Shown in pieces: positions 5,212 to 11,273 of a stretch of DNA of 14,629 nt. The notes below the pieces were generated by a model, which was given only the letters and a program-made list of their open reading frames with translations, was not told the DNA's origin and searched no databases. Source of the stretch: a virus; UHGV virus genome UHGV-0103744. One strand, given 5' to 3'. The translations under genes and the position numbers were made by a program. Within the stretch, counting starts at the first letter, position 1; every line of letters starts with the position of its first letter.

Positions 5212-6075
5212 TCATTTCGCATCTACAATAAATAACCTGTTTATCTGGCCTTTTTTAACAGTAGCCTTTGCGGTTATAGTGAATACTGCAGATGGATCAC
5301 CTTTGGTTGATATATATGCACTAAGAGCTCTAATATACGGGTTATTCTTCTTTCCTGCAGCTGGATCGCTAATTTCAGCAGTGATTCTCTTTTTTGAGTC
5401 ATCACCATCTAAAATTATTTTAGCTGTCATATTTTGTGCATCAAATTCTGTAAGAAAAGCACGATACTCACGAAGACCGAGAACTTCATCATCATCAAGC
5501 CTATCAATTTCAGCTTTATCTCTCTCGTTAACTTTTAGAAGGCAGCCGTCAACATTTGTTGCAACACTTATCTGATCGCAAGTATTACCAATAGGTGATA
5601 CTGCCTGCCTTACAGAGGGGCGAAGCTCTACAGCCATTCGGTCAATCAAAGAGATCAACTTATCAATGGTTCCAGCATCCTTGTTTCCTAGTGCCTCTAT
5701 GGCCTTTTCAAGTGACTGCTGCAAAGCTTTCATTTCATCTTTCTTGTTAGAATTTCTCGCAAAAATATATTGTAGTATTGCGCCAAGTATAGTTGCGGCG
5801 ATCCCCGAGAACAACTGGTTCTGAGTGGCGAAGTTAAGAACTGCTTCAAGAGTAAAGCAGTTAGCTTTTGCTTCGCGTGCGTAAACCTTAACTTCCTGAT
5901 AATTAATGTATTTACTATATTTTTGTGTAACAGAGAAAGAAGCTGCTGTTGAGAGAACTTTAGAAAAACCCTTTAGGGATTCTCCTAGGCAGTTCAAATC
6001 TATTTCATGATTTAAAGCATCTTTTCCGTCATACCTAAAAGAGATTTTTATATCCTGTAAAGCGTCACAATCCAT
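5212..6075 (-). CDS. Orphan 287-aa protein in the rexAB-equivalent slot (downstream of and co-oriented with cI); one predicted hydrophobic helix; function unknown
   Basis: Long uninterrupted ORF; visibly AT-rich relative to flanking phage genes; lies between the cI stop (6142) and a strong terminator (5181-5208); hydrophobic segment [19 protein letters not shown] followed by a charged, helical-looking region. No family recognised. Confidence 0.7.
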
Positions 6076-6935: not shown

Positions 6936-7166
6936 ATGAACCCAGCTATCAAAACAGCGATCAATATCGTTGGTTCACAAAAGAAACTGGGCGCTGCCTG
7001 CGAAGTTTCACAGCAGGCCGTCTATAAGTGGCTTCACAACAAAGCAAAGGTATCCCCTGAACATGTCGGCAGCATTGTTACGGCTACTGGTGGAGTAGTG
7101 AAGGCATACCAGATTCGCCCGGATCTTCCGAAGTTGTTTCCACACACCGAAAAGAACGCAGCTTAA
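6936..7166 (+). CDS. Cro-like HTH regulator of the YdaS type (76 aa)
   Basis: Small HTH protein (GSQKKLGAACEVSQQAVYKWLHN) transcribed divergently from cI off PR; resembles Rac YdaS-type Cro analogues from memory. Confidence 0.75.
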   Translation: MNPAIKTAINIVGSQKKLGAACEVSQQAVYKWLHNKAKVSPEHVGSIVTATGGVVKAYQIRPDLPKLFPHTEKNAA

Positions 7167-7235
7167 ATTTCCATTTCACGCTCTTTAACAATAAGCAATC
7201 AACTTAACAGTCAATTCAAACTAAAGGAGTCAATT

Positions 7236-7775
7236 ATGCAACAACTTATATACCAACAGACTAGCGGATTTAGCCCGACTGCGGTGATAAATCGTTCTCA
7301 AACAAAACAGGTGCCAGGCCACGAAAAAATCCGTGATGCCGTCCGCGCCTGGTCGGCTGAAGATAATCAGGATGTCGTTGCCACACTCATTGTGAATGAG
7401 TATCGGGAGCAGGGCGGCGGCACCATCGATTTCCCTGATGATGTCAGCCGTGCACGCCAGAAGCTGTTCCGCTTCCTTGATAACAAATTCGATTCTGAAA
7501 AATACCGAAATAACGTGCGTGAACTGACCCCGGCAATTCTGGCGGTACTACCGCTGGAATATCGCGGCCACCTGGTTGAGCAGGATATCTTCATGGCTCG
7601 GCTGGCTGAAATGGAAAAGGAACTCAGTGAGGCAAAGCAGGCGGTCATTCTCAACGCCCCACGCCACCAGAAACTGAAGGAGATGAGTGAAGGCATTGTG
7701 TCGATGTTTCGAGTGGACCCGGATCTGGCTGGTCCATTGATGGCGATGGTCACCACCATGCTGGGGGCAATATGA
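7236..7775 (+). CDS. YdaT-like protein in the cII position (179 aa)
   Basis: Strong RBS AAGGAG; motifs IRDAVRAW, QKLFRFLDNKFD and LTPAILAVLPLEYR parallel those I recall in Rac YdaT (PF06254-type); the gene order cro-like then ydaT-like is conserved with Rac. Confidence 0.6.
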   Translation: MQQLIYQQTSGFSPTAVINRSQTKQVPGHEKIRDAVRAWSAEDNQDVVATLIVNEYREQGGGTIDFPDDVSRARQKLFRFLDNKFDSEKYRNNVRELTPAILAVLPLEYRGHLVEQDIFMARLAEMEKELSEAKQAVILNAPRHQKLKEMSEGIVSMFRVDPDLAGPLMAMVTTMLGAI

Positions 7776-7861
7776 CAGGTTCAAAAATGGCGAAAGTCGG
7801 TCTGCGGGAACAGAACCGACTTTCAGGTGCAAATCGTAACACACTCATTGCGGGAGGAATT

Positions 7862-8791
7862 ATGGCAAACACTGCTGAGATATTCAATTTTCCTGTGCCG
7901 GATGCGGCACAAAAGGAGCCGCGCGTGGCAGATCTCGATGATGGTTATACGCGCATTGCAAATGAGTTGCTGGAAGCTGTAATGCTGGCCGGATTAACAC
8001 AGCACCAGCTTCTGGTCTTCCTGGCTGTCATGCGCAAAACATATGGCTTTAATAAAAAACTGGATTGGGTGAGCAACGAGCAACTTTCCGAGTTGACCGG
8101 GATATTGCCGCACAAGTGTTCTGCTGCAAAAAGTGCTCTGGTAAAGCGTGGGATTTTTATTCAGAGCGGGCGGAATATAGGCATTAATAATGTGGTCAGT
8201 GAATGGTCAACATTACCCGAATCAGGTAAGAAAAATAAAGTTTACCTGAAAGAGGTAAATTTACCTGAATCAGGTAAGAAAAGTTTACCCAAATCAGGTA
8301 AAGGCACTTACCCGAATCAGGTAAACACAAAAGACAAACTAACAAAAGACAATATAAAACCTTATTCGTCCGAGAATTCTGGCGAATCCTCTGACCAGCC
8401 AGAAAACGATCTTCCTGTGGTGAAACCGGATGCTGCAATTCAGAGCGGCAGCAAGTGGGGGACAGCAGAAGACCTGACCGCCGCAGAGTGGATGTTTGAC
8501 ATGGTGAAGACCATCGCGCCATCAGCCAGAAAACCGAATTTTGCAGGGTGGGCTAACGATATCCGCCTGATGCGTGAACGTGACGGACGTAACCACCGCG
8601 ATATGTGTGTACTGTTCCGCTGGGCATGCCAGGACAACTTCTGGTCCGGTAACGTGCTAAGTCCGGCCAAACTCCGCGACAAGTGGACCCAACTCGAAAT
8701 CAACCGTAACAAGCAACAGGCTGGCGTGACAGCCGGAAAATCAAAACTCGACCTGACAAACACTGACTGGATTTACGGGGTGGATTTATGA
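7862..8791 (+). CDS. O: Replication initiator O (lambda O-like), ori iterons embedded in the coding sequence
   Basis: N-terminal domain VADLDDGYTRIANELLEAVMLAGLTQHQLLVFLAVMRKTYGFNK... parallels lambda O; contains an iteron-encoded linker (LPESGKK repeats) and is followed by an overlapping P gene. Start taken at the ATG with GGAGG RBS (7862); the track's 7772 start is probably an over-extension. Confidence 0.85.
   Translation: MANTAEIFNFPVPDAAQKEPRVADLDDGYTRIANELLEAVMLAGLTQHQLLVFLAVMRKTYGFNKKLDWVSNEQLSELTGILPHKCSAAKSALVKRGIFIQSGRNIGINNVVSEWSTLPESGKKNKVYLKEVNLPESGKKSLPKSGKGTYPNQVNTKDKLTKDNIKPYSSENSGESSDQPENDLPVVKPDAAIQSGSKWGTAEDLTAAEWMFDMVKTIAPSARKPNFAGWANDIRLMRERDGRNHRDMCVLFRWACQDNFWSGNVLSPAKLRDKWTQLEINRNKQQAGVTAGKSKLDLTNTDWIYGVDL
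8213..8360. repeat. Origin of replication: five 17-bp palindromic iterons plus an adjacent A-rich tract
   Basis: TTACCCGAATCAGGTAA (8213-8229), TTACCTGAAAGAGGTAA (8242-8258, degenerate), TTACCTGAATCAGGTAA (8261-8277), TTACCCAAATCAGGTAA (8285-8301), TTACCCGAATCAGGTAA (8308-8324); followed by acaaaagacaaactaacaaaagacaatataaaacc. Same layout as lambda ori inside O. Confidence 0.8.
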
Positions 8792-9489
8792 AAAACATCG
8801 CCGCACAGATGGTTAACTTTGACCGTGAGCAGATGCGCCGGATCGCCAACAACATGCCGGAACAGTACGACGAAAAGCCGCAGGTACAACAGGTAGCGCA
8901 GATCATCAATGGTGTGTTCAGCCAGTTACTGGCAACTTTCCCGGCGAGCCTGGCTAACCGGGACCAGAACGAACTGAACGAAATCCGCCGCCAGTGGGTT
9001 CTGGCTTTCCGGGAAAACGGGATCACCACGATGGAACAGGTTAACGCAGGAATGCGCGTAGCCCGTCGGCAGAATCGACCATTCCTGCCATCACCCGGGC
9101 AGTTTGTTGCCTGGTGCCGGGAAGAAGCATCCGTTACCGCCGGGCTGCCAAACGCCAGCGAGCTGGTTGATATGGTTTACGAGTATTGCCGGAAGCGTGG
9201 CCTGTATCCGGACGCAGAGTCTTATCCATGGAAATCAAACGCGCACTACTGGCTGGTTACCAACCTGTACCAGAACATGCGGGCCAATGCGCTTACTGAT
9301 GCGGAATTACGGCGCAAGGCTGCCGATGAACTGTCCTGTATGACCGCGCGAATTAACCGTGGTGAGGCGATACCTGAACCAGTAAAACAGCTTCCTGTCA
9401 TGGGCGGTAGACCTCTAAATCGTGCACAGGCTCTGGCGAAGATCGCAGAAATCAAAGCTAAGTTTGGGCTGAAAGGAGCAAGTGTATGA
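8788..9489 (+). CDS. P: Replication protein P (DnaB helicase loader), 233 aa
   Basis: Essentially matches lambda P as I remember it over the full 233 aa (MKNIAAQMVNFDREQMRRIANNMPEQYDEKPQ...); start overlaps the O stop. Confidence 0.93.
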   Translation: MKNIAAQMVNFDREQMRRIANNMPEQYDEKPQVQQVAQIINGVFSQLLATFPASLANRDQNELNEIRRQWVLAFRENGITTMEQVNAGMRVARRQNRPFLPSPGQFVAWCREEASVTAGLPNASELVDMVYEYCRKRGLYPDAESYPWKSNAHYWLVTNLYQNMRANALTDAELRRKAADELSCMTARINRGEAIPEPVKQLPVMGGRPLNRAQALAKIAEIKAKFGLKGASV

Positions 9490-10007: not shown

Positions 10008-10263
10008 ATTTAATCCAATCAATCAGAAAGACGAGTAATCATAGAGGTACTATCACCCGGGTAACTATTGCTATTATGAACGGATAGGATAGAGGCTTCA
10101 ATAACATATGCATCAAGTATGATGGAATATGTAGATGAAAATGACTTGTGTCAAATTTGTGGAAATGAGTACCATGTTTCTCTGAAATTGATGTCGTTAA
10201 TGGCTAGTGATAGTGAACTTTTTTACTTTATAATTCCTTTGGTTATAACAATAAGGTAAATTT

Positions 10264-10824
10264 ATGAAGAAGATAATATTATTAGCCATGATTATTGGTT
10301 CTTTAACAGGTTGCGCTAGTGTGCCACCATTGAATTTTTCAACACCTAACGTGGGAGTTAGCCAGAAAAAAATAGATGCTGAAATTAAGTCATTAACGGT
10401 ATCACTTGCTCGTCCAGATGAGCAGAAAGGGGATATCACTGCTGGTATGGAGGCTATAACTCCAATTTGGCGTGAATCTTTGCAGGAAGCACTCGACCGA
10501 ATGACTATTTTTCGTGATAGTTCACCAAATACGGTTAGCTTAAATGTTAAAGTGTTGGCTCTTGACGTTCCTGCTTTTGGTGTTTCAATGACAACTAAAG
10601 CAATTGCAAGGTATGAAATAATCAACCGTGCGAATGGTGATATTATATATACGCAGGATATTGAGTCTACCGGCACTGTTCCAGCCAGTTACGCATTCTA
10701 CGGTATTGTTCGAGCACGCGAATCTGTTAATCGCGCGGTGCAAAACAACATAACGCAGTTCTTGCAAGCATTAGAAAGTGTTGATCTTTCTCGTCCAATG
10801 TTTCCTGTTAGGGTAGCTAAATGA
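10264..10824 (+). CDS. Predicted lipoprotein (186 aa), cargo gene 1
   Basis: Signal peptide with lipobox MKKIILLAMIIGSLTG-C; AT-rich codon usage; stop overlaps the start of the next lipoprotein gene (ATGA). No family recognised. Confidence 0.7.
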   Translation: MKKIILLAMIIGSLTGCASVPPLNFSTPNVGVSQKKIDAEIKSLTVSLARPDEQKGDITAGMEAITPIWRESLQEALDRMTIFRDSSPNTVSLNVKVLALDVPAFGVSMTTKAIARYEIINRANGDIIYTQDIESTGTVPASYAFYGIVRARESVNRAVQNNITQFLQALESVDLSRPMFPVRVAK

Positions 10825-11273
10825 AGCGATTATTCGTAATTGCTCCACTCTTAGTGTTGGTTGGATGCGCACAAAATATATCGCCAAATAGTTATTCTGT
10901 TGGCTCTGTGGGCATGGTTAATCGAACTATCGCTGGTACAGTTATTAGTGCCAGGGGGGTTGATATCAGTGGGACTTCCGCGTTAGGCGGGACTGCTGGG
11001 GCTGCCGTGGGGGCAACCGCTGGTTCTGCGCTTGGTGGGGGAGTTCGTTCTAATATCGTTGGTGCCGTTGGTGGTGCAGTCATTGGTGGTATTGCCGGGG
11101 CAGCAATCGAATCTTCAGCAACAAAACAAACAGGCATGGAATATGTTGTCGAAACTGAGAATGGGAATTTAATGACCATTGTTCAAGGCAAAGATCCGTT
11201 ATTTACTCAAGGAAGTAAGGTCCTTGTTTTATACGGAAACCCTTCTCGCATAATAACAGACCCGCGTCACTAA
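10821..11273 (+). CDS. Predicted glycine-zipper lipoprotein (150 aa; SlyB/Pcp-like architecture), cargo gene 2
   Basis: Lipobox MKRLFVIAPLLVLVG-C; long Gly/Ala-rich zipper GTSALGGTAGAAVGATAGSALGGGVRSNIVGAVGGAVIGGIAGAAI typical of Gly-zipper outer-membrane lipoproteins; translationally coupled to the upstream gene. Confidence 0.7.
   Translation: MKRLFVIAPLLVLVGCAQNISPNSYSVGSVGMVNRTIAGTVISARGVDISGTSALGGTAGAAVGATAGSALGGGVRSNIVGAVGGAVIGGIAGAAIESSATKQTGMEYVVETENGNLMTIVQGKDPLFTQGSKVLVLYGNPSRIITDPRH

Follow-up and report, generated by a model that had tools for sequence, protein, structure and literature searches.

Gene O of the viral genome UHGV-0103744 very probably contains, within its own coding sequence, the replication origin of a lambdoid prophage, arranged in the layout of phage lambda. 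The stretch of DNA analyzed here, 14,629 nt long and referred to below as the window, brings together the features of a lambda-type origin: an initiator with a PF04492 domain, at least four iterons of 17–19 nt with suitable spacing, an A/T tract, and constraint on the DNA itself. The comparison with relatives supports a division in which origin specificity (N-terminal domain and iterons) would be non-lambda and helicase recruitment (C-terminal domain, right arm, and P) would be of the lambda type. The origin, a standard one of the lambda type, belongs to a common non-lambda specificity class; it displays a known modular exchange and no new kind of element, and as such is already known. The location of the origin in gene O, the type-specific pairing of N-terminal domain and iterons, and the exchangeable P-interaction module all belong to classical lambda biology.

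Table 1. Features of the O–P region and their positions in the window.
Feature	Coordinates	Strand	Description
Promoter-like site	7859..7887	-	TTGAAT-17-CATAAT with TG; overlaps the O start; consensus match only
Gene O	7862..8791	+	putative origin-binding replication initiator, 309 aa; start by alignment to lambda O
O N-terminal domain, residues 1-116	7862..8209	+	predicted winged helix-turn-helix
Iteron 1	8213..8229	.	TTACCCGAATCAGGTAA; frame 0, LPESGK
Iteron 2	8242..8258	.	TTACCTGAAAGAGGTAA; frame +2, YLKEVN; most degenerate of the five
Iteron 3	8261..8277	.	TTACCTGAATCAGGTAA; frame 0, LPESGK; perfect 8-1-8 palindrome
Iteron 4	8285..8301	.	TTACCCAAATCAGGTAA; frame 0, LPKSGK
Iteron 5	8308..8324	.	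TTACCCGAATCAGGTAA; frame +2, YPNQVN
A-rich tract, presumed DNA-unwinding element	8325..8359	+	ACACAAAAGACAAACTAACAAAAGACAATATAAAA; encodes TKDKLTKDNIK; 25% GC
Origin right arm, 31-nt conserved island	8365..8395	.	TTCGTCCGAGAATTCTGGCGAATCCTCTGAC; imperfect palindrome around GAATTC at 8374-8379
O C-terminal part, residues 168-309	8363..8788	+	predicted disordered to ~196, helical domain 202-286
Gene P, putative helicase (DnaB) loader	8788..9489	+	overlaps the O stop by 4 nt

The core of the element, at 8213-8360, consists of five 17-nt near-palindromes that fit the pattern TTACCYRAAWSAGGTAA, with start-to-start distances of 29, 19, 24, and 23 nt, and of the A-rich tract that follows them. Around its central base, each iteron shows dyad symmetry at 6–8 of 8 base pairs. 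When up to two mismatches are allowed, the pattern occurs in the 14.6-kb window at the five sites of the array and at no others; counted by strand, these give eight matches, where 200 shuffles lead one to expect 0.04. The array starts 4 nt past the last codon of the N-terminal domain, and iterons and A-rich tract all lie inside a single open frame (7772/7862-8791). Coordinates, symmetry, shuffles, and reading frame thus confirm the claim of an earlier note on this DNA that five palindromic iterons and an A-rich tract are embedded in the O coding sequence, although iteron 2 differs at two positions and iteron 4 at one from the stricter consensus given there. The spacing corresponds to about two helical turns, except for the longer first gap. 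Because of this 29-nt gap between iterons 1 and 2, and because iteron 2 is degenerate, the five iterons need not all be strongly bound; in Stx phages, strong binding was found at only four of six iterons (PMC7466680).

Directly after iteron 5, two ACAAAAGACAA units occupy 8327-8356, and over 8320-8359 the GC content falls to 25% with an AT skew of +0.73. The tract is 91% identical to its counterpart in Klebsiella phages. In 11 of the 15 O genes compared, among them those of lambda, P22, and HK97, a ACACAAAAGACA...ACAAAAGA motif (ACACAAAAGA-type A-rich DNA) stands after the final iteron, and variants of it occur in the Yersinia and Morganella phages, phi80, and SPN3UB. In lambda, in-frame deletions of the A-rich region kill the origin while O still complements (PMC6022878). 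The right arm, which begins just to the right of a mosaic boundary with lambda-type sequence, reaches about 100% identity to lambda and is identical to phi80 at 30 of 31 positions, whereas the rest of the phi80 gene shows 27–83% identity per 30-nt bin, mostly 30–67%.

The start assigned to O (MANTAEIFNF, against MTNTAKILNF in lambda O) is preceded by GGAGG 5 nt upstream; an alternative ATG at 7772, which gives a protein of 339 aa, is often called in RefSeq records. Phage_rep_O (PF04492) matches O residues 21-115 over its full profile (1-95) with an E value of 5.1e-34. An AlphaFold2 model built from a 16-sequence alignment (mean pLDDT 58) comprises a folded winged-helix domain at residues ~35-117 (pLDDT 75–83), a stretch at 118-196 lacking secondary structure (pLDDT ~30), and a helical C-terminal domain at 202-286 (pLDDT 65–83). 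Within the first of these, the model places a hairpin at 99-108 and helices at 72-79 and 83-95, of which the second is the predicted recognition helix. The best Foldseek matches in the PDB were all winged-helix regulators (CRP/FNR, IclR, MarR, GntR) at sub-significant E values of 0.05–0.3, and a sequence search of the PDB returned no solved relative of O (best E 0.6). From sequence and model, the N-terminal domain is predicted to be the type-specific origin-recognition module. It is 49% identical to that of lambda, 60% to that of P22 gp18, and 79–84% to those of the Klebsiella phages GZ7 and KO-TP1. In lambda, four iterons located in the O gene itself are bound by O (PMC6022878, PMC8022706, PMC7466680); DNA binding resides in the N-terminal part of the protein and P binding in the C-terminal part, with a flexible linker in between (PMC6022878). 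This literature and the predicted disorder at 118-196 both favor the earlier proposal that the iterons here encode a linker between the O domains.

The second half of the gene is lambda-like. In bins of 30 nt, 13–80% of the DNA is identical to lambda as far as about 8360, and 90–100% across the remainder of O; the switch, which takes identity from about 30–67% to about 100%, falls at 8360-8362 (lambda 39154-39156), immediately to the right of the A-rich tract. From 8362 onward, through the C-terminal part of O, the right-arm island, and P, the DNA is approximately 93–100% identical to lambda. The record of lambda itself lists recombination points at 39157 and 39165, equivalent to this boundary. 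At the protein level, 139 of the 142 C-terminal residues of O (98%) and 229 of the 233 residues of P (98%) are identical to lambda, and P matches Phage_lambda_P (PF06992) at E 8e-62. A lambda-like C-terminal domain and P protein had been proposed for this locus, and both are present. The C-terminal part of O is thus, by homology, the putative P-interaction module of the lambda type, the role described for its counterpart in lambda O (PMC6022878); together with the right arm and P, it falls within the P-dependent helicase-loading module of lambda.

The layout as a whole is shared with lambda: the origin sits in O between the DNA-binding N-terminal and the P-binding C-terminal domain, and tandem dyad-symmetric iterons 19–24 nt apart are followed to the right by an A-rich tract and then by a GAATTC-centered right arm. 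The recognition half, however, falls outside the lambda origin class, that of the lambda, 434, 933W, and ES18 iterons. Where lambda has four iterons (39034-39118, spacing 20/24/23), the window has five, the last three distances being 19/24/23. The half-site is TTACC instead of TCCCTC, the predicted recognition helix starts with ILPHKC instead of LPVKRC, and the core reads GAATC, without the A-tract, instead of CAAAAC as taken from the lambda sequence. Alignment against lambdoid O and ori families, which the earlier note had called for, therefore bears out its statement that the iterons differ from those of lambda (TTACCYRAAWSAGGTAA here, ATCCCTCAAAACGAGGGA in lambda): in addition to the iterons, the N-terminal domain, at 49% identity, and the start of its recognition helix are non-lambda.

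The generality of this pattern can be judged from the iteron region of 15 O-family genes, all of which carry their own dyad-symmetric iteron family after a conserved (S/T)(E/Q/D/A)W motif that closes the N-terminal domain. TTACC-N7-GGTAA is found in the window, KO-TP1, and GZ7; TTACC-N5-GGTAA in P22; TTAGC-N7-GCTAA in HK97, SEN34, a Yersinia phage, and a Providencia phage; and TCCCTC..GAGGGA in lambda, 933W, and ES18. The remaining families are TTCCCG..CGGGAA (phi80), GTCACC..GGTGAC (mEp043), AGAGACA..TGTCTCT (Morganella), and ATCCCCG..CGGGGAT (SPN3UB). In the N-domain alignment of these genes, the iteron class goes together with the residues that open the predicted recognition helix. ILPHKC is paired with TTACC-N7-GGTAA, MAPTKC with the P22 iterons, and LPVKRC with all three phages of the lambda class; HHTH occurs in all four TTAGC phages, including SEN34, whose N-terminal domain is otherwise closest to the class of the window. 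This co-variation is indirect evidence that hints at which protein may read the repeats.

The helicase partner follows a different distribution. The iteron class of the window is combined with lambda P here, and GZ7 and a Kluyvera sichuanensis prophage combine it with a DnaC-like AAA+ loader; the lambda class occurs with P or, in ES18, with a primase-helicase; the partner of the HK97 class is a DnaB-type helicase in HK97 itself and P in SEN34. The N-domain/iteron module and the C-domain/helicase-partner module thus assort independently, and the other pairings in GZ7, Kluyvera, and ES18 show that the two modules of O are exchanged. This reassortment and the boundary at 8360-8362 lend support to the proposal of the earlier note, an exchanged recognition domain joined to a conserved helicase-loading interface.

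Among the characterized systems, P22 gene 18 has the closest N-terminal domain, and it shares the TTACC/GGTAA half-sites, a ACACAAAAGACAAT A-tract, and the position of the origin inside the initiator gene (PMC8022706). It differs in that the half-sites are 5 nt apart instead of 7, and in its partner, a phage DnaB-type helicase (gp12) in place of P; its C-terminal part is unrelated, without meaningful similarity (local score 23), so that gene 18 is not a member of the same class. The converse holds for the Stx phages 933W and P27, which have the same C-terminal domain and P as the window (99% identity in the O C-terminal part) but iterons and an N-terminal domain of the lambda type; 933W has six iterons, the last three spacings being 20/24/23 against 19/24/23 here. 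GZ7, KO-TP1, and the Kluyvera prophage share the iteron class TTACCYGAATCAGGTAA and the N-domain type, whereas their C-terminal domain is unrelated and their right arm reads CCCCCTAAATCCCCCC; for KO-TP1, the annotation of the gene downstream of O is that of a putative P-like replication protein.

The number of iterons varies within these families. In Stx phages with six iterons, in-frame duplication of a unit changes the iteron number and lengthens O (PMC7466680); in parallel, a 48-nt unit of two iterons has been triplicated in the Kluyvera prophage, which brings its iteron number to nine. Some E. coli prophage O proteins are in-frame variants that keep only two or three iteron units, and these are rare. 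A scan of 596 Gb of genome contigs for single iterons, in which about 140 chance matches are expected, returned mostly single matches in unrelated phyla; only multi-copy matches are meaningful, and these came from Kluyvera (five exact copies) and Pseudocitrobacter (two). The exact iteron string did not occur in the searchable literature, nor was experimental work on the TTACC-N7-GGTAA class found there.

The coding context makes it necessary to ask whether the repeats act as DNA at all. According to one explanation, they are purely protein-level, a low-complexity linker grown by codon-repeat slippage and devoid of DNA function; three copies do encode LP(E/K)SGK, the region is predicted to be disordered, and its length differs among homologues. 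Yet the LPESGKK-type peptide repeats described in the earlier note hold for iterons 1, 3, and 4 only. Iterons 2 and 5, shifted by 2 nt, encode the unrelated peptides listed in Table 1, and because they sit in another frame, the peptide repeat is best seen as a by-product of the DNA repeat and not the reverse. Each copy is, moreover, a DNA palindrome, which a peptide repeat would not need, and the iterons co-vary with the recognition helix across the 15 phages. Finally, comparison with GZ7 and KO-TP1 shows that third codon positions are 91% identical (29/32) in iterons 3–5 and the A-rich tract, against 54–56% in the folded N-terminal domain; overall DNA identities are 91–92% and 76–78%, respectively. 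The origin sequence is clearly constrained as DNA beyond coding needs. With repeats read in two frames, all of them palindromic, and conserved third codon positions, the DNA itself would be the object of selection, and an origin of purely protein-level repeats is highly improbable. It is equally hard to credit that the palindromes are operators through which the repressor, Cro, or a host factor regulates O and P expression. Dyad-symmetric 17-mers do have the size of operators, but the motif is absent from the cI/cro intergenic region, as from the rest of the window outside the array, and the array occupies the position of the lambda iterons and agrees with them in spacing and in the A-tract alongside. 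It also travels with the O N-terminal domain across different immunity regions and hosts (Klebsiella, Kluyvera).

The surrounding genes follow the order cI-like repressor, cro-like gene, cII-position gene, O, and P. At the position of the minus-strand promoter-like site, lambda has pO, from which the antisense OOP RNA is transcribed (PMC6022878); an Rfam scan of the window returned no family at gathering score and hence gives no support for an OOP-like RNA. A replication module of the Rac type (oriJ) was also considered on account of YdaS/YdaT Pfam matches in the window, but was rejected, as Rac of K-12 has the DUF1376 protein YdaU and the ATPase YdaV instead of O and P.

For a lambda-type origin, the steps of initiator binding, unwinding, and P–DnaB recruitment can be outlined by analogy with lambda biochemistry. 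Rightward early transcription would lead to the production of O and P, and dimers of the winged-helix N-terminal domain of O would bind the five TTACC-N7-GGTAA iterons. The resulting nucleoprotein complex would strain and open the adjoining A-rich tract, and the lambda-type C-terminal domain of O would then recruit lambda-type P carrying the host DnaB helicase, which host chaperones would free for the start of replication. As the origin lies in coding DNA, it would also be translated, yielding a disordered linker rich in K, S, G, P, and N between the two O domains, whose sequence would be set by the DNA sites and not by the needs of the protein.

This allele is one of the most common in E. coli. 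Of 5426 complete E. coli genomes, 2297 (~42%) have the segment 7862-8360 at a coverage of at least 80%, and the exact O protein falls into a 90% cluster of 7825 members that bears the name "replication protein O." The whole gene is 96.7–98.5% identical in 15 phage records (4A7, Perceval, Lambda_4C10, 1W/3W, the PhiR series, and others), some of which name an E. coli host strain; this speaks for a module that functions in live phages. In strain JL05, an identical segment lies in a prophage at the tRNA-Arg gene beside fimZ, the position of DLP12 (argU), together with intD, ybcN, ninE, ybcO, rusA, quuD, essD, and rrrD, and the nin-Q region of the window matches that of phage 82 (record X92588) at 96% identity. 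The window is thus best read as a DLP12/phage-82-like lambdoid prophage, and its origin may for this reason be the long-known origin of phage 82. That origin was reportedly sequenced in 1979–81, in work attributed to Grosschedl and Hobom (1979) and to Moore, Denniston, and Blattner (1981; Gene 14:91). Furth and Yates (1978, cited in PMC6022878) are said to have described the classical lambda/phi80/82 hybrids; lambda–82 hybrids crossing over within O would have a lambda-like C-terminal and a type-specific N-terminal part, the same pattern as in the window. The exchange proposed in the earlier note is therefore upheld, while its novelty was overrated, given the classical hybrid result and the abundance of the allele.

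Kinship with DLP12 raises the further possibility that a genuine lambda-type origin persists here as a relic that no longer fires, in a prophage that has become defective, as DLP12 has in K-12. The argU/DLP12 position that the window takes up in related genomes, the rare in-frame variants with two or three iterons in other E. coli prophages, and the location of the late region outside the window are in keeping with this. Against it, O, P, and all five iterons are intact, the genes from int through Q and lysozyme are all open, and the five-iteron form dominates, with 7825 cluster members against 1–9 for the short forms. We consider a relic unlikely. The question bears on the current activity of the element and not on its identity as a lambda-type origin; the origin may currently not fire in its host, and the completeness of the prophage lies beyond the window.

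A more far-reaching reading, which is doubtful at present, is that lambda-family origins are bipartite at the DNA level and that recognition-helix residues 81-86 set the iteron half-site. The left half, made up of iterons and A-tract, would travel with the O N-terminal domain, and the right arm may be a loader-specific DNA element and more than the first codons of the C-terminal domain. Right arms of the form TTCGTCCGAGAATTCTGGCGAATCC would go with P, CCCCCT-type arms with DnaB- or DnaC-type partners, and ATGTCCGAAAGTGTTCGGAC with primase-helicase partners. If this were true, orthogonal lambda-type replicons would be predictable or designable from residues 81-86, and the TTACC-N7-GGTAA iterons and the TTACC-N5-GGTAA iterons of P22 would form a natural pair differing in dimer geometry.

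The most direct use of the finding concerns annotation, as none of the database records inspected marks an origin at 8213-8360 and many extend O by 30 codons. Beyond this, the correspondence of iteron class, helix motif, and helicase partner could be of help where the incompatibility or the specificity of replicons has to be predicted for lambdoid prophages that share a host, Stx phages among them.

Within the part of gene O that encodes the N-domain, comparison with the O gene of Salmonella phage SEN34 (L006) reveals an uneven similarity over the region compared (7862-7980). In 30-nt bins, identity to the window amounts to 83-97% for the first ~90 nt from 7862, drops to 73% in the bin that follows, and then ranges from 50 to 70%. 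Both the HHTH recognition motif and the iterons of the SEN34 gene are of the HK97 type. The pattern resembles a mosaic junction within the N-domain, narrowing the specificity down to the part that follows residue ~35.

RefSeq and several phage records place the start of O at ATG 7772, which gives a protein of 339 aa and an overlap with the stop of the upstream gene, and both this length and the 309 aa resulting from ATG 7862 are found in databases. We favour ATG 7862, because it matches the lambda O start in the alignment and is preceded by GGAGG 5 nt upstream. For the 30 extra codons of the longer form, none of the O genes compared, those of lambda, P22 and HK97 included, has an equivalent. 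Across this start codon lies a predicted leftward sigma-70-like site, in the position occupied in lambda by pO, the promoter that drives the antisense OOP RNA. Rfam showed no family that matches here, nor was a terminator found.

Iterons of the window's class occur in 2 to 9 copies (Kluyvera sichuanensis prophage L064, 2537-2744; O proteins P0020-P0027). Copy number changes by in-frame gain or loss, in units of 24 or 48 nt, between iterons lying in the same frame, and the short forms are rare, with 1-9 member sequences each.

Features of the window with their positions
Feature	Position	Strand	Description
287-aa ORF	5212-6075	minus	between kil/gam region and repressor; DUF7946 + DUF7947
cro-position and cII-position genes	6936-7775		YdaS and YdaT Pfam families
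sigma-70-like site	7859-7887	minus	TTGAAT-17-CATAAT, extended -10 TG
31-nt island	8365-8395		TTCGTCCGAGAATTCTGGCGAATCCTCTGAC; imperfect palindrome around GAATTC
186-aa and 150-aa ORFs	within 10197-11273	plus	between ren-like gene and nin region
159-aa ORF	within 10197-11273	minus	overlapping ORF in the same interval

The YdaS and YdaT genes, whose family names include 'toxin', belong to families also present in the Rac prophage; there, however, the replication genes are ydaU/ydaV, while the adjoining ones of the window are of the lambda O/P type. This neighbourhood is another mosaic joint. Further upstream, the 287-aa ORF holds the slot of lambda rexAB. It has a weak match (E 5e-4) to the PADLOC candidate defence family PDC-S42, and other defence genes (PD-lambda-1, GevT, HipD) are found at its position in related phages; the ORF may be an accessory gene with an anti-phage role. 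Apart from a weak glycine-zipper match of the 150-aa ORF, the three ORFs that separate the ren-like gene from the nin region matched no Pfam or PADLOC family.

A survey of O genes (loci L002, L003, L005, L010, L011, L012, L013, L015 and L016) distinguished several types of sequence directly to the right of the A-rich tract, which track the helicase partner when DNA- and protein-level constraint are taken together. The GAATTC palindrome accompanies P; CCCCCT..CCCC(..GGGG) is found with DnaB-type helicases and DnaC-type loaders, and ATGTCCGAAAGTGTTCGGAC with the primase-helicases of ES18 and mEp043. The island of the window is identical at 30/31 positions to phi80 gene 15 (L009), against 27-83% per 30-nt bin in the rest of the two genes, and its location coincides exactly with the module boundary and with annotated recombination points of lambda. 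It could be a functional right arm of the origin, a recombination linker, or both.
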